20,000 nucleotides of DNA, from positions 58,279-78,278 of the IMG/VR virus record IMGVR_UViG_3300031851_000007; one strand, given 5' to 3'. Below the pieces are notes generated by a model. The model did not search any database. It worked only from the letters and a program-made list of their open reading frames with translations, and was not told where the DNA came from. The stretch comes from an uncultured virus (IMG/VR IMGVR_UViG_3300031851_000007) (lineage: Duplodnaviria > Heunggongvirae > Uroviricota > Caudoviricetes). The position numbers were made by a program, and so were the translations under genes. The stretch's first letter is position 1, and every line of letters starts with the position of its first letter. Of this stretch, positions 1-19,915 are shown one piece after another.

Positions 1-816
1 CTGTGGACTAACTGCTGTACTTCTACCTATTTGCTTTAATACATCTTTTAAGTGTGTATATGCAGCAATAGTTGCTGTTTTTTCTTCACTATCAATTTGT
101 AGATTACCTGTACTACCGTCATAATATGCAAGACCTGCTTGAATACTTTGCCAGTTACCTGTATATACTAAGTCGTATACAACTGCATCTGAAATAAATG
201 CAACATCTTTTTTGCATGATGTTCTACTATAATCTAAGTTTGGATACTGGTCTTTAATGTAAGCAATAACTTCTTGTTGTATAAACTCTTTGTTTGTACT
301 AATCATGTCAGCTGCTTTTTGAAAATCTCCATCTGTTGAAGCACTTGCTGGAATTTCTCTTCCTAGCTGTGTTTGTAATGAAGAGTCAATATTTCTTATT
401 AGTATTTTTGAAAGCATTTCTGCAGAATCTCTTTCTGCAGGCTGACCTAATGGAAATTGTGCAAACTGAGTTACGTTATTTCCTGATGTTGGCGTTACGG
501 AGGTACCGTCTACAACATCACCAATAATTTCAGTAAGTCTGTTTAATGCATGATGGCTAAATCTAAAGTCCTTTCTAGGAGTTAGTGTAGCGTTTGTTGC
601 TTTTCTAGGTTGTACGTTAGTTGAACGTAATTCGTCACCTATAATACATGTTTCTGCTGGAACACGTATCGGAAGCACTTCAGTATAAGTACCTGTTGCT
701 ACTTTTACTAAACTGTTCCTAATTTCTCTGGGTGGTACATTAGTATCCACACCTGCTGTTACTGCATCGGTAATTATTTCACCGAGCGATTGTACTCTTT
801 CAAATACTGTAGCCAT
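1..816 (-). CDS. Partial CDS (runs off the left edge; absent from the ORF track): large virion structural protein, C-terminal continuation of the 816..2840 protein
   Basis: ATG at 816-814 overlaps the upstream TAA (TAATG). SD GGAGGA lies 8 nt upstream. The frame appears open to position 1 (272 codons): MATVFERVQSLGEIITDAVTAG...VKVATGTYTEVLPIRVPAETCIIGDELRST...NKEFIQQEVIAY...CKKDVAFISDAVVYDLVYTGNWQS. This matches motifs in the 1921-aa paralog (ISTGRFEETLPIIVPKNCVIMGDELRST). Confidence 0.9.
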   Translation of the reverse strand, partial: MATVFERVQSLGEIITDAVTAGVDTNVPPREIRNSLVKVATGTYTEVLPIRVPAETCIIGDELRSTNVQPRKATNATLTPRKDFRFSHHALNRLTEIIGDVVDGTSVTPTSGNNVTQFAQFPLGQPAERDSAEMLSKILIRNIDSSLQTQLGREIPASASTDGDFQKAADMISTNKEFIQQEVIAYIKDQYPNLDYSRTSCKKDVAFISDAVVYDLVYTGNWQSIQAGLAYYDGSTGNLQIDSEEKTATIAAYTHLKDVLKQIGRSTAVSPQ

Positions 817-2840
817 TAGTAGTATCCTCCGCCGTCATTGTCGCCACCGCCGTAGCCGCCACTACCAGTTGCATCTGGATCTTGGATAGATGCGTTAACG
901 CCCAATGCTGTTCCTGTAGAGCCTCCGGCTCCGTTATATTCTAGTGTATCTAAGCTAGTAAAGTTAGTATCAAAATACTGTGCAACTACTGCTGTTGAAT
1001 TATCACCGTTTGTTGTTTGGTAATTTACTGCTGGTGCTTCACCTAGAAGCACTTTTTGTATCAATGCAATGCCGTAGTTAATACTAGCTACAGTTTCTGC
1101 TTCTTGACCAAGTGCATAAAATTTTCCTGGATCTCTTACATAACGTAATGCTGCTTCTCTTGATTTTACATTTCCGCCATGTGTTAAATCATATATAAAG
1201 GCGTCAACAATGAAACCCATATCTCTTTCACATTTTTCTTGTGCATATGTAAATGCTGCTGTGAAAGGAGCAATGTCATTTGTTACTTGATAATCTGTCC
1301 ACTCAACAATTTCTCTTGTTATAAATTGTCTGTTTAATTCTAACATACGTGCAACTGCTGGAACTCTTGATCCATTTTCAATTGCTTCACATGCATATCT
1401 AATAGTTTTGAAAGGCTTATCAATTGTGCGTCCTGCATCTGGAGCAGGCTTATCAACACCATGTGGTGCAACATAGTAAACATCGTCTGTTGCGCCCAAG
1501 TATGACCATTCTGGAATTGCTCCGTCGCTTACACGTAATACTTGTCCTTCGCTGCCTACTGGTAATCTTGTTGGACCTGCACCGCCGTAATAAACCAAGT
1601 CGCCTTTTGTAGTTAGGAATTCTGCTTCACTACCAACTGTTAGAACGTTCCAGTATGTACCTGTTGCGTCTAGGTCTGGACGTGAATTTTCATTTCCGCC
1701 TCCGCCTGCGCCAACTTGTACTGTTGAAAAGTCATCACCTTCTGACCAGTGTGCATTTACACAAACATAACTGCTTGATCCGTAACGTACTACATCACCT
1801 AATATATAACGTGAATCATCTACCCATGCGCCCTTCCAATTAAAGCCACTGTTTAGTCTTGTCCAATATGTTGCGTCTGGTGGTTCATTGTTATTACTGT
1901 CTTTAATACACAAGTATGTGTATCCGCCGTGCTTAACAACTTCACCAACTTTATAATCTTGGTTAGTTGAGTCTTCGCCCCAAGCGTTTAAGAATCTAAA
2001 GTTTTCTGTAAATAGCTGCCAGTTATTAGGATCATCTGTTTCATCTGTTGGACGTGATCCTGTATGGTTTTCTAATGCTACATACTGATTACCACCGTAT
2101 CTAACAACATCACCTTTTTGGTAAACTTTGTAAGTATCCCAATCATCTTCAAATTGGAAACCTTGAACAAACTGTGTCCAATTTGACTCATCTGTTGAAA
2201 AGTTATTAGTACTTGAATGAGCAGTTGTTGCAAGCCAAAGACTTGCACCGTACTTAACAACATCATTTATTTTATATCTTGTTGCAGAACCTTGCCAGTT
2301 ACCTTTGTATTCAATACCTGCATTAAGAACGGACCATTTAGATTGATCTGCTTCTAAACCAAGCGATGCTGTTGCTGACGATGTATGTGGAGTAATACAT
2401 ACATATGAATAGCCACCATATTTAACTAGGTCGTTTATTTTATATTTTGTGCTTACTGACCATGTACTTTTGAAGTCTAAGCCTTCGCCAAAGACATCCC
2501 AGTTTCCAATATCAGCTTCTAATCCGTCATCAGCAGATGCTTGTGATGTATGTACTGCTGTTGCTACATACAAGCGGGCGCCGTATTTTACAATGTCATT
2601 AAAGATGTATGCTGTGCCTGTTGACCAGTCACCTTTCCACTGAAATCCATCACTGACAATATTCCATTTTGGCGGAACAACGTCAAAGTCACTATAAAAG
2701 TTTGCCTGACTTTCGTGTCCAATGACACAAATATACATTCTGCCGCCGTTAAAGACAACATCGTCTTTATAGTATGTGGTACTGGTTGTCCAATTGTTTT
2801 TCCAGACAAACCTAATTCTACCTAGTTTAAATTCTGCCAT
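816..2840 (-). CDS. Virion structural (fibre/spike-like) protein, 674 aa: 7 Trp-rich CBM5/12-like repeats, half of a beta-helix N-cap motif, a helical repeat and a Gly-rich tail
   Basis: ORF track. Repeats follow WxxxTxYxxNDxVxYGxxxYVCxxxH...W. Also contains LTTKGDLVYYGGAGPTRLPVGSEGQVL and YYVAPHGVD...PFKTIRYA. SD GGAG and a GATAAATA box lie upstream. Confidence 0.85.
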   Translation of the reverse strand: MAEFKLGRIRFVWKNNWTTSTTYYKDDVVFNGGRMYICVIGHESQANFYSDFDVVPPKWNIVSDGFQWKGDWSTGTAYIFNDIVKYGARLYVATAVHTSQASADDGLEADIGNWDVFGEGLDFKSTWSVSTKYKINDLVKYGGYSYVCITPHTSSATASLGLEADQSKWSVLNAGIEYKGNWQGSATRYKINDVVKYGASLWLATTAHSSTNNFSTDESNWTQFVQGFQFEDDWDTYKVYQKGDVVRYGGNQYVALENHTGSRPTDETDDPNNWQLFTENFRFLNAWGEDSTNQDYKVGEVVKHGGYTYLCIKDSNNNEPPDATYWTRLNSGFNWKGAWVDDSRYILGDVVRYGSSSYVCVNAHWSEGDDFSTVQVGAGGGGNENSRPDLDATGTYWNVLTVGSEAEFLTTKGDLVYYGGAGPTRLPVGSEGQVLRVSDGAIPEWSYLGATDDVYYVAPHGVDKPAPDAGRTIDKPFKTIRYACEAIENGSRVPAVARMLELNRQFITREIVEWTDYQVTNDIAPFTAAFTYAQEKCERDMGFIVDAFIYDLTHGGNVKSREAALRYVRDPGKFYALGQEAETVASINYGIALIQKVLLGEAPAVNYQTTNGDNSTAVVAQYFDTNFTSLDTLEYNGAGGSTGTALGVNASIQDPDATGSGGYGGGDNDGGGYY
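1650..2804 (-). repeat. Seven tandem ~50-aa Trp-rich repeats (protein level, CBM5/12-like)
   Basis: Units start WKNNW, WKGDW, FKSTW, YKGNW, FEDDW, FLNAW and WKGAW, each followed by Y-x-x-x-(D/E)-x-V-x-x-G-x-x-x-(Y/W). Confidence 0.8.
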
Positions 2841-2858
2841 TTTCTACTCCGCTCAAAG

Positions 2859-2866
2859 TATTTATC
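2859..2866 (-). promoter_or_regulatory. Putative T4-type late promoter box GATAAATA
   Basis: Intergenic, 18 nt upstream of the ATG at 2840. The same motif recurs in three other intergenic gaps. The T4 late consensus is TATAAATA. Confidence 0.7.
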
Positions 2867-2892
2867 CTAATATGTTGATTGCTCATTTTTCC

Positions 2893-5800
2893 TTAAAAAC
2901 TACCGTCACTAAAGTCATTGTCAATGCTAAAGTCATTTCCGCTTTCGCTTAGAATGATCATTTGCTTAACTATTGTTCCGCTAATCTCTGCTCCTTTATC
3001 AATTACCATTCTTCTCGGTAATAATATTTCAATACCAGTTGTAGTGTCAATATACTGGTCCTCTGTTCCTTTGTTACCTAGACGTGTAACACCTGCAATA
3101 AGTGTTCCTGTTTCAAGAGCACTACCACCTTGGCTAAGTCTGTTTTGCAAGAATGTTGCTATTGCTCGTTGTGTCGGAACAACGTTGTTACTATCTTCAG
3201 TAAAGTTTGGATCTGTTGAGAATTCTCTAACAACAGCACCCGAACCACCAAGTCTAACTCCGCCTAGTGCTAATTCACTCAACCCATCTAAGTCAAAGAA
3301 CTCAGCACTAATTGTAACAATACCTGTTGCCTGTTGCACACTAAACAACTCACCTGCTCTAAAGTTACCATCTTGGTCTGTACTTGTATAGAACACTCGT
3401 CCACCGTTTTCTTCTTGTACTTCGTTTTCAGGTGCAGCAACAAAGTAAGCACCGTCTGAATAAACATCTGGATAGTTTGTTATTATAAAGTTTCCTGTTC
3501 CGATATCTAAGAAGTCGTGTCCTGAAATACGACACTGTGAATAACGTTCACGTATTGTTATTACAGTAGCGTTTTGAAGACTGTCTAAGTTTTCTATAAT
3601 AGGTGTAAGTTTTATTCCTGCTTTTAATTTTCCATTATCATCAGCACCAAGTGGTGTTATCTGCTGTACTGTGAAAATCTTTAAGTCGTCTTCGTTAGCA
3701 GTGTCTAAGTCTGGAATACTTGCAAACAAGAACTGTGCACCTGGTCCTGGATATACGTCTAAATTATCTACAACTATATCTGCACCAATTGGAATAATAT
3801 CTGCAAAACCGTCACCACTTATGTTTGCTCGTGTGCTAGATGTTCTATATCCAAAACCTCTAAATACAAAGCTAGGTTGTGCAAGAACGCCGTTGCCTAT
3901 TCTGTTTTCTGTTAATACTGCAACTGAAAATGCGTTATCAACTATTGTTATTACAGCAGGATCTTCTGCTGTATACCCACTACCTGGATCCCAAACTTTA
4001 ATTTCACTAAACACACCAGTATTAATATTAGCTCTCAATTTTGCTCTACAACCAGTAAACACTCTACATGTTCCGTCACCAATGTCATTCTCAGCTGTTA
4101 GCATCCATCTGCCTCTGCCTTCAAACGAACCAAATGCACATGATCTATATTTTTGTCTTGGGCTTGGTAGTTCTCTGTTGGTCCATATAATTCCATCTTC
4201 AGATGTTGCTGCAAATGTAGTTTCACCAAAAGTCGGGTCCCGTCCAACATCTCTACTACCTGTATCACCTACTGCAAAAAATATGCCTTGTCCGTATCTA
4301 ATTTTAGTCCAGTTATGATGTGATGATCCGTCTTGTTTTGGCATAGTTGCTGATGTCCATGTTTCGCCATCAAAACTATATGCTGCTTCACTGTTTGTTC
4401 TTGATATAGCAACATAACGGTTGTTACCGTATGCAATACTTTGCCAATCAGTAACTACCGGAAGTGCATCTTCGTAAACTGTCCATGATCCTGTACCAGC
4501 TGTCGGCGATGTTGCAATTACATTATCAGCATTTGATAATACTACAAACTTATTTTTTCCGTATGTAATTGACTGCCATTGTGTTGCTGTTGAGTCACCA
4601 ACTCCTCCGGAAGTAACATCTGGAAATACTTGCTCAGTCCAAGTTATGCCATCTTCTGATATTGCATAATCTTGAGAGTTTGCTGCAATAGCAACAAATT
4701 TATTCTTTGCATATATTACATCTATCCATTCTCTGTTTTGTGGTAAGAATCCTCTAGTCCAATTTATGCCATCTAAACTATATGCCATTCTTGCTGATGC
4801 ATCTCTAATTGCAACAAATCTGTTGTTTCCTGCTGCTACTGCTGTCCAGTCTCCTGAATCAGGCAAGTCAGCTGGTGACCACGAGTCTCCGCCATTACTA
4901 GAATATGCTGCACTTAGTGAACTTTTAAGTACTGATACAAACCGTCCTTCTGTACCTATACCTGTTGTTGTAAAGTTTGAAATACTGTTTGTACTATCAT
5001 TTGATATTTCTGTGACAGTAATTACAATATTGTTAAGTGGTGTTGTACCGCCAACTGATGCGCCAACAATTGTAATAGTATCGCCTACAGCATATCCTGC
5101 TCCATCAAAACCGTTTCTTAATGTTACAACGTAACTTTGTCCTGTCTTTGTAACATTAAATCTAGCAACTTGTGCAACTACATCAGTAGTTTCTCCTGTA
5201 CCAAATTCGCCTGCAATATCTAAGAAAGTTTCAGTTGTGCCGCCAAAGGCAACATCTACCCAGTTACCGTTTCCTGGAATAAATTTTTGTTCTGCTGTAA
5301 AGGCAGGAGCATTTACAGTTAATCTTGGTTCAATTCTATATGTTGTACTGCTTATAAGTTCACTAGCAATTTCAGTACCTGCAACAACATGATCCCAACC
5401 TGGCTCATCATTACTTTCTTTATAAACAGATGCTACTTTTGTTACTGAATTGTAAGATTGTATATATCCATACTGTCCTGTACCTACGCCTGATGTAATA
5501 AGAATTCGCTGCCCTGTATACGCTGCTGCGTCATTATCATCTGCTGTTGCAAGAGTAATAGTAGTTTCGTCACCATCTTGTGCGTTGTTACCTTCAAGTG
5601 TATATCCACTGCCGCCGGCGCTACCTGAATCTGGTGGTGTAAGCAATCTTGCTTCGAATAATCCGCCATCTCTTATATCTTCAAATACAGCATTTGCTTG
5701 TGCTCCTGAACCAGTAAATGCAACATTGGCATTTGTATAGTTTTGACCTGCGTTACTATATTCTAAGTTAAGAATAAAGTCACTAACTTCGCCAGCGAAC

Positions 5801-8658
5801 ACTGCACTTACTTGTGCGTCTTGATTTCTGTTAAACACTGTTGCAGTTTTAGAAATTTCGTTTGGATCAATACCTTCTGCTACTGCTCCGTATCTACCAT
5901 ATGAGTTGTTACCGTTTGTTGCACGTATAACTCCGCCTTGTGTAGCTAAGTATCCAACTTGATTATAATATGTAAATACGGACACAAGTTCTGCTCTACC
6001 ATTATTATCAATCCATGCTCCAATACCATCACTTAATACTTGTGTAAAGTCGTTAGCTGTCATTGACTTATTACCACCGTTGTGTAATGCTCCGTCAACT
6101 TTCATGCCAATACATGCTGTACCTAATGTTGTTACACCTTGTATATAAGGTGATCTAGTCATAATCCAGCAACGCTCATCTTCTGGTCCCCAACCTGGAT
6201 CTAGTGATGCATAAGCACCAGCTGTCGGACGTTGGTAAAATTCAAATACTCCTGGAGGATTAAGTACACCTTTAAGACCTTCAATAGTACATTGTCTCAT
6301 GCCTGTTGCATCTCTAAAGTAGAACATATCTTCTAAGTTACTACCTAAAATATCATTTGTGTAATATCTTGCAGCTAGTTTTGTTTTATAGTTTCCTGGA
6401 TATAATAAATCATATCTTAGTGCTTCAATTAATAGACTTATGTCTAATGTAACTTGCTGTGCTTTATAATCGTAATATTGCTGTACTGTTTTAACTTCAC
6501 TTGTTAAATCAACTGGGTCATCACCTACACGCTTCGATACTTTGAAAGTAATATTATCTATAATGCTGTGTACATAGTAACGTACATTTGCTTCTAGGCC
6601 GCCAATTGTATCTGCAAATTTGATAGGTAACCCTACAGTCAAGTTACCTGTTGCACCAATTAGCCAATCTTCTGAACCATTAGCACTTGTAACATCTGCT
6701 CTAAAGTTATCCATAGTAGCTGTTGCTTCGCCAATTATAAAGTTTCTATTGTTTAATAAAATATCGCGAGCATAACCAACTTCAGTTGACGTTTCGGCGC
6801 CGTTGTTACCTTCAGTATCTGCAACATTACCTATACTTCCTATGTAAAAGTCTAAATAGTCGTCATATGTATCAAGCAACACTTGTAAGTTATTAGTGTT
6901 TGTAGAATCTGATGCAGGGAATGTATTATCAAAATCAAATGTATTGCCTGGAGTTTTTTCAAATTCGCCTCCTGACAGCATATTTGGCATAATTGCTCTT
7001 AATCTAGCAATAACTGTTTTTCTGTAAGAAAGATCGACTGCTAAGTCAGGATCAGGTGAGCCTGCAGCAATTGTTGTTGAACGAAGTTCGTCTCCCATAA
7101 TTACACAATTCTTTGGTACAATAATAGGCAGGGTTTCTTCAAATCTACCTGTACTAATAAATATTTTACAAAGCTCGCCATTAAAGTTTTTATCAGCATA
7201 TTCAGCTGCATACTTAACTGTTCTAAATGGTAAATGTATTGATCCTCTTAAAGTATCAGTTTCGTCGTCAATACCGTCAAGTGAAACATATAGTTGGTTT
7301 GATGCTTTAGAATAATATTCATAACCTAATGTTTCATTATCGTCTACCATTAGTACTTGTTGACGTTCACCGATAGGTACGTTAGTTACATCAAATGTTG
7401 ACCCGTCACCTTGTAATCTACGTGAAAGATTATAAGTTAGTAAGTCACCTGTATTGTTCATACCAACTGTGTTACCAGACTGTACTAATAAGTCCCAATA
7501 GTTAAATCCACTACCGTTATCGCCCGGAAAGTTGTTATCTGTTGATAAGTGTGACTGAGAAGCATAATATGTGTTACCAAAGAAGTTAACAATATCGCCT
7601 CTACCATAAGTTGTGTCTTGTGTCCAAGGACCTTTCCAATTTTGTGACGGAACTACAAGTTCCCAATCGTTATCGTCTAAATAATCAAGTGTCGAACCGT
7701 CATTAAGTGTGTTTCTTACACATCTAAATAATTCACCACCCCTACGTACTAAATCACCTGTTGAATAAGTTGCAGTTGCGTCCCAGTCGCCTCTAAAGTT
7801 GTTAGAGTGTGAAACTTTTAACCAAGTCGAACTTGAATCAATAAAGTCTGGTTTTTCACCTGTTGTAGACGTAATAGCTAGGTATACGTTACCACCGGAT
7901 CTTACTAAATCTCCTTCTTGATAACTATTATCTGCGTTCCATTCGCCTTCTGTGTTTTGTCCTGGAAATTCTACATTAAAGTATCTGTTGTCAATTGGGT
8001 TAGCACCACTGTGTCCTACTGTACATTTCCAAATAGAACTACCATACTTAACTAAATCATTTTTTCTATACCTTGTTCCAGCAGCATAATTTCCTACAAA
8101 TTCAACACCGTCTAAGAACACTTCCCATTTACCTGCTGAGTCATCACCAAATTCGTCTTCAATACCAATTAAAGCACTTTGACTTAAATGTCCTACTAAA
8201 CACTTGTAAACAATACCGTTGTACTTTACTAGTGCATTTGGACCGTAATATGTTGTTGGAGCCCAAGGTCCTACAAATTTATTTCCTATTGCTAACACGC
8301 TCCAGTTTGTTATTTCAGCTCCAAACTCAGCAGCAGTATGCGCAACTACACAATAATATAATGTACCTGAATATAATGTAACATCACCTAATCTGTACTC
8401 GTTACCAATTGTCCAGTCACCAACAAATGTTGATTTACCGTCTGTCATTACTTTCCATTTTGGCTGTGATACCGGTGGATTTGAATTAGGTAATATGTAA
8501 TCTAAATCAACGTAGAAGTTTGCGTCAGCTGTGTGTGTTACAACACATACATATGATTTTGCGCCATGTCTTACAACGTCATCTCTTTTATAACTTATGA
8601 AAGGTGTCCAATCACCTGTCCAGTTATACTTAAATCTTTCTAAATTAAACTCTGCCAT
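2893..8658 (-). CDS. Large virion structural (fibre/spike-like) protein, 1921 aa: 7 CBM5/12-like repeats, a beta-helix-like region and a beta-propeller of WxxVxYGxxxFVA repeats
   Basis: ORF track. N-terminus MAEFNLERFKYNW is paralogous to MAEFKLGRIRFVW. Propeller-type repeats include WTAVAAGNNRFVA, WIDVIYAKNKFVA, WQSITYGKNKFVV and WQSIAYGNNRYVA, with Asp-box-like SxDGxxW motifs. Confidence 0.85.
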   Translation of the reverse strand: MAEFNLERFKYNWTGDWTPFISYKRDDVVRHGAKSYVCVVTHTADANFYVDLDYILPNSNPPVSQPKWKVMTDGKSTFVGDWTIGNEYRLGDVTLYSGTLYYCVVAHTAAEFGAEITNWSVLAIGNKFVGPWAPTTYYGPNALVKYNGIVYKCLVGHLSQSALIGIEDEFGDDSAGKWEVFLDGVEFVGNYAAGTRYRKNDLVKYGSSIWKCTVGHSGANPIDNRYFNVEFPGQNTEGEWNADNSYQEGDLVRSGGNVYLAITSTTGEKPDFIDSSSTWLKVSHSNNFRGDWDATATYSTGDLVRRGGELFRCVRNTLNDGSTLDYLDDNDWELVVPSQNWKGPWTQDTTYGRGDIVNFFGNTYYASQSHLSTDNNFPGDNGSGFNYWDLLVQSGNTVGMNNTGDLLTYNLSRRLQGDGSTFDVTNVPIGERQQVLMVDDNETLGYEYYSKASNQLYVSLDGIDDETDTLRGSIHLPFRTVKYAAEYADKNFNGELCKIFISTGRFEETLPIIVPKNCVIMGDELRSTTIAAGSPDPDLAVDLSYRKTVIARLRAIMPNMLSGGEFEKTPGNTFDFDNTFPASDSTNTNNLQVLLDTYDDYLDFYIGSIGNVADTEGNNGAETSTEVGYARDILLNNRNFIIGEATATMDNFRADVTSANGSEDWLIGATGNLTVGLPIKFADTIGGLEANVRYYVHSIIDNITFKVSKRVGDDPVDLTSEVKTVQQYYDYKAQQVTLDISLLIEALRYDLLYPGNYKTKLAARYYTNDILGSNLEDMFYFRDATGMRQCTIEGLKGVLNPPGVFEFYQRPTAGAYASLDPGWGPEDERCWIMTRSPYIQGVTTLGTACIGMKVDGALHNGGNKSMTANDFTQVLSDGIGAWIDNNGRAELVSVFTYYNQVGYLATQGGVIRATNGNNSYGRYGAVAEGIDPNEISKTATVFNRNQDAQVSAVFAGEVSDFILNLEYSNAGQNYTNANVAFTGSGAQANAVFEDIRDGGLFEARLLTPPDSGSAGGSGYTLEGNNAQDGDETTITLATADDNDAAAYTGQRILITSGVGTGQYGYIQSYNSVTKVASVYKESNDEPGWDHVVAGTEIASELISSTTYRIEPRLTVNAPAFTAEQKFIPGNGNWVDVAFGGTTETFLDIAGEFGTGETTDVVAQVARFNVTKTGQSYVVTLRNGFDGAGYAVGDTITIVGASVGGTTPLNNIVITVTEISNDSTNSISNFTTTGIGTEGRFVSVLKSSLSAAYSSNGGDSWSPADLPDSGDWTAVAAGNNRFVAIRDASARMAYSLDGINWTRGFLPQNREWIDVIYAKNKFVAIAANSQDYAISEDGITWTEQVFPDVTSGGVGDSTATQWQSITYGKNKFVVLSNADNVIATSPTAGTGSWTVYEDALPVVTDWQSIAYGNNRYVAISRTNSEAAYSFDGETWTSATMPKQDGSSHHNWTKIRYGQGIFFAVGDTGSRDVGRDPTFGETTFAATSEDGIIWTNRELPSPRQKYRSCAFGSFEGRGRWMLTAENDIGDGTCRVFTGCRAKLRANINTGVFSEIKVWDPGSGYTAEDPAVITIVDNAFSVAVLTENRIGNGVLAQPSFVFRGFGYRTSSTRANISGDGFADIIPIGADIVVDNLDVYPGPGAQFLFASIPDLDTANEDDLKIFTVQQITPLGADDNGKLKAGIKLTPIIENLDSLQNATVITIRERYSQCRISGHDFLDIGTGNFIITNYPDVYSDGAYFVAAPENEVQEENGGRVFYTSTDQDGNFRAGELFSVQQATGIVTISAEFFDLDGLSELALGGVRLGGSGAVVREFSTDPNFTEDSNNVVPTQRAIATFLQNRLSQGGSALETGTLIAGVTRLGNKGTEDQYIDTTTGIEILLPRRMVIDKGAEISGTIVKQMIILSESGNDFSIDNDFSDGSF
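7495..8622 (-). repeat. Seven tandem Trp-rich repeats (protein level), same family as in 816..2840
   Basis: Units start WTGDW, FVGDW, FVGPW, FVGNY, TEGEW, FRGDW and WKGPW, most followed by Y-x-x-x-D-x-V. Confidence 0.8.
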
Positions 8659-19073: not shown

Positions 19074-19514
19074 TTAGTCGTCGCCTTCAGTATCGTCAGC
19101 ACCTGTTAGTACGTCATCATCTGTACCTAGTACTGTGTCAGTACCTGCGCCTACGGCTGTACCAGCTTCTTCAATTGCTACTGTATCACCAGTACCTGTG
19201 AAGTCCCAAGTTGTAATTGATCCGTCATCTAAAGTAACTTTGCGTCCTGTAATCTTAGTAACTTGACGTGCTGTGCCGTCGTCGTCTACTGTAATTGTCA
19301 TTTCGCCTGCTAGAATATCTGCTGAATCTTTATCTACTAGTGTACAAAGATCTGTTTTTGTTCCGCCGGCATTTGAACAATTAAAACGCTTTGAACCTTT
19401 TTGGTTAACAATGTATCCTGGCATTGAACCAGAGCCGTCATTAAATTGTACTTTGATTTCAGATCCATCTGTTGTTGGTGCTCCGAAAAATCTTTTATTA
19501 AGTGGTCTTCCCAT
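19074..19514 (-). CDS. Hypothetical phage protein, 146 aa, with an acidic low-complexity C-tail; probably a late virion protein
   Basis: ORF track. Strong AGGAG SD at 19522-19526 and its own late-promoter box. Confidence 0.8.
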   Translation of the reverse strand: MGRPLNKRFFGAPTTDGSEIKVQFNDGSGSMPGYIVNQKGSKRFNCSNAGGTKTDLCTLVDKDSADILAGEMTITVDDDGTARQVTKITGRKVTLDDGSITTWDFTGTGDTVAIEEAGTAVGAGTDTVLGTDDDVLTGADDTEGDD

Positions 19515-19609: not shown

Positions 19610-19617
19610 TATTTATC
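19610..19617 (-). promoter_or_regulatory. Putative late promoter box GATAAATA
   Basis: Fourth intergenic copy, just downstream of a terminator. Confidence 0.7.
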
Positions 19618-19630
19618 AAAGGTCTAAGAG

Positions 19631-19669
19631 AAAAGAAAAAAGGCCTACCGCATTAGTGGGTAGACCTTT
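19631..19669 (-). terminator. Intrinsic terminator
   Basis: Minus strand reads AAAGGTCTACC-CACTAATGC-GGTAGGCCTTT-TTTCTTTT: an 11-bp stem with one G-U pair, followed by a U-tract. Confidence 0.85.
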
Positions 19670-19671
19670 AA

Positions 19672-19881
19672 TAATAATGTGATAGGTTGGACTTTGAGAA
19701 TACCAACAACCTCCTAGTAGCTCTCGCATAATTCGGAGGAGCCTAGTATCGGATAGTTACTTCCAAAAACATATCTTTGTATCTCTACACTCATATGTTG
19801 CCACTACAGCTACTAGCCAAGTTGTGTCACTACGCAACACCGTTCCTTGCACTATCTAATCTAAACCGTCGTCTAGCTTAT
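19672..19881 (-). ncRNA. Candidate independently transcribed structured ncRNA (~210 nt)
   Basis: Bracketed by a sigma70-type promoter and an intrinsic terminator, with no convincing ORF. Contains multiple helices, a GAGA tetraloop and a perfect 9-nt long-range complement (CUAGUAGCU/AGCUACUAG). Confidence 0.65.
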
Positions 19882-19887
19882 ATATAC

Positions 19888-19915
19888 ATAATAGCATCTA
19901 TATATAAGATGTCAA
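19888..19915 (-). promoter_or_regulatory. Sigma70-type promoter (-35 TTGACA, 16-bp spacer, extended -10 TGcTATTAT)
   Basis: TTGACA at 19915-19910 and TATTAT at 19893-19888, preceded by TGn. An A-tract upstream resembles an UP element. Confidence 0.75.

Follow-up and report, generated by a model that had tools for sequence, protein, structure and literature searches.

A divergent manA RNA of an uncultured giant T4-like marine phage, probably a free-standing early transcript with matched loop pairs

The window analysed here is a stretch of 20,000 nucleotides (nt), the terminal part (58279-78278) of the 78,278-base IMG/VR record IMGVR_UViG_3300031851_000007, from an uncultured virus (CheckV completeness 22%). 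Near the end of the window, on the minus strand, lies a 201-nt RNA core (19676..19876) that belongs to the manA RNA family (Rfam RF01745), preceded by a sigma70-like promoter (19888..19915) and followed by an intrinsic terminator (19631..19669). Next on the same strand come a late-promoter-like motif, GATAAATA (19610..19617), a freshwater-2 RNA motif (RF02980; 19512..19595), and an open reading frame (ORF) of 146 amino acids (aa), MGRPLNKRFFG..., at 19074..19514, which matches no family and is the first gene of a fibre and baseplate block. manA has been an orphan riboswitch candidate since 2010 (PMC2864571). We consider it probable that in this phage, an uncultured marine giant related to T4, a divergent manA RNA is made early by the host RNA polymerase as a discrete transcript that acts on its own, with loop pairs that let its copies dock.

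Membership in the manA family

The RF01745 model matches the RNA over its full length (model positions 1-192 of 192) at 43.3 bits, with an E-value of 7.7e-10 in a 601-nt search and 2.3e-11 against the 78-kb record to which the window belongs. This match is seen with E-value reporting and lies below the cut-off that Rfam itself applies. The original prediction, made from the letters alone, had described a complex structured non-coding RNA of a class it did not recognise, and had listed manA among the motifs for which an Rfam scan should look. The scan it proposed thus supplies the identity: the structured RNA is real by the measure of the covariance models (E 7.7e-10, and E 1e-19 for the model described below), and its class is a known one. 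No tRNA or tmRNA is found in the window by ARAGORN.

Relatives of the 146-aa protein are encoded on 33 viral contigs or loci, and weak relatives occur in the jumbo phages Atu_ph07 and Phosso. Homologues of the RNA were sought upstream of these genes, as had also been proposed, by scanning 20 of the 33 contigs with Rfam. manA sits at the same place upstream of the 146-aa gene homologue in 13 of the 20, scoring above the cut-off in seven (77.1-88.2 bits) and below it in six (43.3-54.5 bits, including a copy identical to that of the window). It is absent from the other seven (L013, L020, L022, L024, L025, L030 and L034). BLASTN of the region, and of the strong homologue at L007, against 50,697 phage records gives no matches, because the RNA is too divergent in sequence. 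The copy in the window has a GC content of 42%.

Covariance models built from this phage group place the window more firmly in the family. A first model, R1, based on five strong near-identical copies and the Rfam-derived structure, missed both the window and locus L006 when run with default filters. A second model, R2, built from 12 copies representing two lineages, with the window and L006 left out, and run with filters off, recovers the window at exactly 19676-19876 (65.6 bits, E 1e-19) and scores L006 at 26.7 bits. R2 also matches every one of 20 canonical manA RNAs from cyanophages, with 41-82 bits where Rfam gives 152-197 bits; for this canonical set, 120 stretches matched a consensus pattern, DNA was obtained for 80, and 20 were examined. 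The R2 score of the window falls in the middle of the canonical range, and therefore all of these RNAs belong to one family. The RNA at 19676-19876 is not of a new class; it belongs, as a divergent member, to the manA family already described.

Locus L006 is a case apart. Its 146-aa protein is the closest to that of the window (90% identity) after two identical copies, and at L006:1172-1346 it carries a reduced manA of 175 nt (Rfam 46.5 bits), in which a 33-nt insert replaces helices P5-P7.

Transcription unit and the riboswitch question

The promoter consists of a -35 box TTGACA (19915-19910), a 16-nt spacer containing the TG that stands before the -10 box, and the -10 box TATTAT (19893-19888); it matches the consensus at 11 of 12 positions and has a predicted start near 19881. 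All 12 related loci have a promoter-like site immediately before manA. Eight of these sites fit the strict pattern TTGAC-N16-19-TAnnnT, with the -10 box ending 8-12 nt before helix P1, and the other four read TTGCTT-N17-TATATT. Among the canonical cyanophage loci, 14 of 20 have the strict pattern, while the other six, as we read them, combine a TTGACA-like -35 box with an off-pattern -10 box.

At the other end, the terminator begins 6 nt after manA with the hairpin AAAGGUCUACC...GGUAGGCCUUU (19669-19639), followed by a U-run to 19631. It is seen in the minimum free energy (MFE) fold and has -15.7 kcal/mol in the terminator scan; a consensus scanner did not list it, probably since its loop of 9 nt exceeds that scanner's limit of 8. 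All 12 related loci have a terminator, with energies of -14.6 to -20.0 kcal/mol and starting 5-11 nt after manA, and what is kept among them is the hairpin and the U-run, the stem sequences being variable. In this phage group, then, manA always has a sigma70-type promoter before it and a strong intrinsic terminator behind it (12/12 loci), an arrangement that the original prediction had proposed from the single copy. Right after the U-run of the window lies UAGACCUUU (19618-19626, minus strand), which has the same pairing potential as the 3' arm of the terminator, being complementary to AAAGGUCUA (19669-61). An element of this type was not seen in the spacers of nine other loci compared.

The gene that follows appears to have expression signals of its own. 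Related loci have a conserved TTTGATAAATACTTGTGTCAGATAG after the terminator, and the motif GATAAATA occurs 11 times in the 78-kb record, with seven of the 11 copies in the approximately 4% of the DNA that is intergenic and no more than 150 nt upstream of a same-strand ORF (by crude ORF calls). Three of the four near-matches in the window are in such positions too. This distribution suggests that GATAAATA is the late promoter of this phage, in keeping with the earlier proposal that the neighbouring gene uses a late-type promoter; the motif seems to resemble the late promoter of T4, TATAAATA.

About 13 nt beyond GATAAATA begins the freshwater-2 motif, an 84-nt leader that scores 70.3 bits against a cut-off of 49.9 and is the sole match in the 20-kb window at Rfam's own cut-offs. 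Its 3' end, AAGGAGAAAACAAAUG, supplies the 146-aa gene with its ribosome-binding site and AUG, and the motif would form the extreme 5' end of a late message. The motif is present in 20 of the 20 related loci scanned, with or without manA, and always ends at the start codon; because its presence does not depend on manA, it does not belong to the manA unit. Five phage records each hold one above-cut-off copy, always at a homologue of the 146-aa gene. The 146-aa gene would thus be driven by its own late-type promoter motif and led by freshwater-2. A full-text literature search on freshwater-2 has only unrelated papers among the matches listed, and what is said of it here rests on the Rfam label and the present analysis. 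Contrary to what the name suggests, this copy occurs in runs with marine labels.

The most serious alternative, though one we regard as improbable, is that manA is the leader of the genes behind it: the manA fold would be a ligand-binding aptamer, the hairpin at 19669-19631 its expression platform, and conditional read-through from the early promoter would carry transcription into the 146-aa and fibre genes. This agrees with the standing classification, since Rfam and Weinberg et al. 2010 (PMC2864571) place manA among cis-regulatory riboswitch candidates, and the literature found by full-text search calls it a putative cis-regulatory element; the passages found there name no ligand for it. manA also lies upstream of a same-strand gene. 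The canonical cyanophage loci lend themselves to this explanation, in that the terminator scan finds no terminator in 13 of the 20; in 12 of these 13 an open frame follows within about 35 nt (by a crude ORF scan), and in the remaining one, L041, a tRNA gene comes next. The same scan finds a terminator at the other seven canonical copies, one of them doubtful.

Several features of the related loci are hard to reconcile with a leader. A riboswitch of this kind should show mutually exclusive pairing between aptamer and platform, and no such pairing is found in the ten loci compared. When the 5' arms of the terminators were folded as duplexes with their own manA and compared with shuffled arms, z-scores ranged from -0.65 to +0.98, at scattered positions, so that no conserved antiterminator emerges; the only outliers in the scan are two 3' arms, that of L007 with z -2.8 and that of L004 with z -2.2, and the sites they pair with differ. 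The terminator starts beyond the closing helix, by the 5-11 nt given above, and does not overlap it. Nor does the RNA occupy the 5' leader position that Rfam's 'Cis-reg' type implies, as a terminator and then a late-type promoter motif follow it in 12 of 12 related loci, although position is a criterion of context, not of structure. The 146-aa gene has its own late-type promoter motif and conserved leader, and in the seven loci listed above it does without manA altogether.

Conversely, manA can have other neighbours. In L010, L011 and L012, manA and its terminator are separated from freshwater-2 by a TTGAC-type promoter, a cspA gene and a 139-aa ORF (the cspA insert, at about 514-962 of these loci, includes a cspA-leader-like match of 50 bits, below its cut-off of 78). 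In L020 a glutamine riboswitch (1007-1054) with small ORFs occupies the slot, and in L030 the region upstream of 248 has only an orphan terminator, the late motif and freshwater-2, with manA absent. Between the upstream gene and the freshwater-2 leader there is thus a cassette site of variable content. As the manA cassette moves independently of its neighbours, it can be argued to be a separate RNA gene. The promoter and terminator in 12 of 12 loci, the independent late promoter and the mobility of the cassette therefore favour an RNA that acts on its own, though some read-through past the terminator may occur. On this preferred reading of manA as a free-standing RNA gene, host RNA polymerase would produce early in infection a discrete RNA of about 250 nt (from about 19881 to about 19632), whose function would lie in the RNA itself rather than in switching the next gene.

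Other small RNA features accompany canonical copies. A tRNA gene lies no more than about 50 nt after manA in two of the 20 canonical loci (L041:209-282 and L053:675-745), and two others have a glutamine riboswitch within a few hundred nt (L058:159-207 and L038:868-919); manA tends to sit in small RNA-gene neighbourhoods. Directly after manA in five of the 20 (L049, L051, L053, L058 and L062) there is a conserved element of about 40 nt, AGACCUAAGAUGCAACU...GGGCAGAUGGUCU, followed by a U-run in four of the five. It matches no Rfam family at that family's own cut-off, and may represent either a structured terminator or another RNA motif.

Part of the window is present in six RNA-library runs, and the contigs of four were compared. 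A 265-nt contig from X15 matches 19674-19885 with 11 differences, and a 471-nt contig from X17 matches 19674-19881 with seven. Both come from relatives, 95-97% identical across the manA core and with flanks unlike those of the window, and the block of homology thus stops precisely where the core does. Metatranscriptome contigs of this sort cannot show transcript ends or level, and uncovered parts and depths are not interpretable.

The fold and its loop pairs

On the family model, the RNA is a single nine-helix multibranch fold. It opens with hairpin P1 (19861-76, loop GACG), and the remainder is closed by P2, in which GAUAG (19856-52) pairs with CUAUC (19685-81). Within P2 lie P3 (19818-49), an inner junction formed by P4 (19811-16 with 19743-48) and holding P5 (19800-10), P6 (19769-98, with the GNRA loop GAGA at 19782-85) and P7 (19750-65), and then P8 (19710-39) and P9 (19686-19707). 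The window pairs at 51 of the 59 model pairs, with all helices present except the inner stem of P8; what it misses are the four pairs of that stem and single pairs in P4, P5, P6 and P8. The model alignment of 12 sequences has standard pairs in 92.8% of its cells and compensatory change in 46 of the 59 pairs, values reached by 0 of 500 shuffles, and shifting the 3' partner by 1-3 columns lowers pairing to 40-45%; these figures are to be read with the caveat that the alignment was fitted to the structure of the model. In P2, four of the five pairs swap between G-C and A-U from one lineage to the other, with about half of the sequences each way. Thermodynamic stability is less distinctive, with an MFE z-score of only -1.93 for the 256-nt unit (6 of 200 shuffles are as good). 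Two plain MAFFT alignments, A1 and A2, were dropped since they put several helices out of register between lineages (RNAalifold recovers only 27 pairs on A1), and covariance-model alignments were used in their place.

Much of the pairing drawn by hand in the original prediction survives in this fold. Its five hairpins are family helices base for base: 19861-76 is P1, 19824-40 with the enclosing CAAG/CUUG is P3, the GAGA hairpin at 19768-99 is P6, CCUCC/GGAGG is P8 and GUUGG/CCAAC is P9. The arrangement of these hairpins into two domains is a different matter. One domain was to be closed by GAUAGU/ACUAUC (19851-56 with 19752-57) and the other possibly by GAUA/UAUC, and in the family fold P2 and P7 replace both. 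The two-domain layout is rejected in favour of the single multibranch fold because GAUAG belongs to P2, and ACUAUC is split between loop L7 and the 3' side of P7.

The same prediction held its two domains together by a 9-bp (base pair) pseudoknot or kissing helix, and as a whole it would make this an uncatalogued kind of RNA, an explanation to which we now attach very little probability. The complement is certainly there: CUAGUAGCU (19816-08) pairs perfectly with AGCUACUAG (19722-14), and a perfect complement of at least 9 bp arises in only 12 of 300 dinucleotide shuffles of the RNA. Set against this are the full-length manA matches of both Rfam and R2, the loss of the domain-closing helices to P2 and P7, and the fate of the helix itself among homologues. 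All nine pairs form only in the window; in the same alignment columns, 11 homologues retain 1-4 of the nine, so that the covariation check proposed with the helix finds no conservation. The helix would moreover occupy the 5' sides of both P4 and P5, strands that covary with partners elsewhere in the fold. The relatives in the metatranscriptome contigs have zero substitutions in either 9-nt segment, and are hence uninformative on this helix. The 9-bp complement reads as lineage-specific, due to chance or at most an alternative conformer. That loops of this RNA pair with one another was nonetheless a sound idea; it had been attached to the wrong pair, the conserved ones being L5-L7 and L8-L9.

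We give virtually no credence to a small protein encoded by the minus-strand ORFs of 26, 31 or 37 codons, which do exist and are the only ORFs inside the transcription unit, since the columns of the 26-codon frame carry in-frame stops in eight of 11 homologues (that of L012 is fully open and unrelated in sequence), segment lengths of 70-85 nt differ by amounts that are not multiples of three, and changes in the helices are compensatory; the small-ORF reading is accordingly rejected, as the original prediction, which saw no well-supported ORF, would have it.

Loop L5 (UGUAGUG, 19802..19808) and loop L7 (AGUAACUA, 19754..19761) are complementary in the window through UAGU (19806-03) and ACUA (19757-54), a 4-bp match offset by one column and worth -1.8 kcal/mol. 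The Rfam consensus has GUGGUG in L5 and uaACCA in L7. Ten homologues form 5 of 5 bp here, with one position A-U in six of them and G-C in four, a swap between two lineages.

The second pair joins GAGAG in the large loop L8 (19721..19725) to UUCUC in L9 (19696..19700). L8-L9 sequences are specific to lineages and yet matched within each: CUGUA/UACAG, AUGUA/UACAU and similar pairs in canonical members, GGU/ACC in the two giant-phage lineages, and GAGAG/UUCUC in the window. The mean duplex energy is -4.10 kcal/mol when both loops come from the same RNA (n = 29) and -1.97 when they come from different members (n = 752). For the window the duplex has -5.2 kcal/mol, whereas its L8 reaches at best -1.2 with 28 foreign L9 loops, and 28 foreign L8 loops reach at best -1.3 with its L9. 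The window thus shares the loop-loop complementarity of manA members, with 4 bp in L5-L7 and a partner-specific 5 bp in L8-L9. The wholesale but matched replacement of L8-L9, as read from these sequences, supports the idea that kissing contacts are subject to selection in nature.

Loop contacts in manA have been noticed before. The manA drawing of Weinberg et al. 2010 (PMC2864571) includes a "pseudoknot?" for which covariation is weak. A preprint of July 2026 (bioRxiv 10.64898/2026.07.01.735769) describes manA decamers, octamers and a 60-subunit cage built from pentamers, all seen by electron cryomicroscopy, and held by kissing loops between molecules, L5-L7' and L8-L9' (or L3-L8'), together with an L6-P6' GNRA-receptor contact. 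By analogy, L5-L7 (UAGU/ACUA) and L8-L9 (GAGAG/UUCUC) may let copies of the window's manA dock onto each other. A bolder and decidedly speculative extension is that in giant marine phages manA is no gene switch but a free-standing early RNA, whose copies build pentamer-based shells or scaffolds by self-assembly inside the infected cell, with the kissing loops as a lineage-specific 'address' (here GAGAG/UUCUC, in canonical phages CUGUA/UACAG) so that only like copies would assemble together.

Source phage, comparisons and meaning

The gene products of the record include baseplate wedge and tail fibre proteins, and, upstream of manA, a longer identical record encodes the C-terminal end of a Gp23-type major capsid protein as well as a 335-aa ORF. 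The capsid, baseplate wedge and tail fibre genes therefore identify the source as an uncultured giant T4-like phage. The runs containing the stretch carry marine or seawater metagenome labels, the habitat being known from these run labels only. Two large tail-fibre-like proteins (674 and 1921 aa; window 816-8658, minus strand) have five or six CBM_5_12 carbohydrate-binding repeats each.

With RF01745 as described, the RNA of the window shares the nine-helix multibranch fold, the GACG loop on P1, AGUG after P2, the GNRA loop on P6, the GGUA...AGUCC hairpin P9 and the complementary L5-L7 and L8-L9 loops, as well as the placement of a sigma70-type promoter right at the 5' end and the setting of a marine phage host. 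It differs in being AU-richer, in a P8 that has a 20-nt loop and no inner stem, in having UAGU/ACUA for UGGU/ACCA and GAGAG/UUCUC for CUGUA/UACAG, in having behind it not an ORF but a strong terminator, with a separate late promoter for the next gene, and in residing in a giant gp23-type phage where canonical copies reside in cyanomyoviruses. Freshwater-2 (RF02980) is a neighbour of manA in this phage group but a distinct entity, the separate 84-nt leader ending in a start codon.

The prohead RNA of phage phi29 multimerises via intermolecular loop-loop base pairing and works on the packaging motor with proteins. It offers a functional analogy only, as another phage-made stand-alone structured RNA with matched docking loops; there is no relationship to manA in sequence or fold. 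We know of no protein partner or role for manA.

Some observations weigh against the interpretation of this locus as a manA RNA that is expressed by itself and docks with its like. The Rfam score of 43.3 bits is under the RF01745 gathering cut-off of 55.2, and the inner stem of P8 is lacking. The canonical cyanophage loci without a terminator by our scan, nearly all with an open frame close behind, fit the published view of manA as a cis-regulatory leader. The X15 and X17 contigs run into promoter-side sequence and come from relatives, so that a discrete RNA is neither supported nor excluded by them. The L5-L7 match of the window is short and weak, and its L5 pairs no worse with 10 of 28 foreign L7 loops. 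The oligomers of the preprint (bioRxiv 10.64898/2026.07.01.735769) were shown only in vitro, with 10 mM Mg and refolding at 50 C, and from other family members. Finally, the loop labels L5, L7, L8 and L9 of the preprint were mapped here by counting the hairpins of the Rfam consensus, and the mapping is an inferred one. Even with these points counted, a manA RNA of this kind, free-standing and early, is the explanation we hold to be probable.

The discovery itself is modest, as the manA family is already known. What it contributes is comparative support for free-standing expression of manA and for selection on its kissing loops; the available portions of PMC2864571, PMC9964418, PMC7657543 and bioRxiv 10.64898/2026.07.01.735769 make no mention of a stand-alone, terminated manA. 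The locus adds to the family a divergent lineage that the Rfam cut-off misses. It also provides comparative evidence on how manA is deployed, with a promoter at the 5' end, a terminator that looks constitutive, and a cassette that is present or absent independently of its neighbours. The lineage-matched L8-L9 loops are ready-made compensatory variants for assembly tests. If manA does assemble in the cell under a lineage-specific address, it would be a natural, virus-made compartment or decoy consisting of RNA only.

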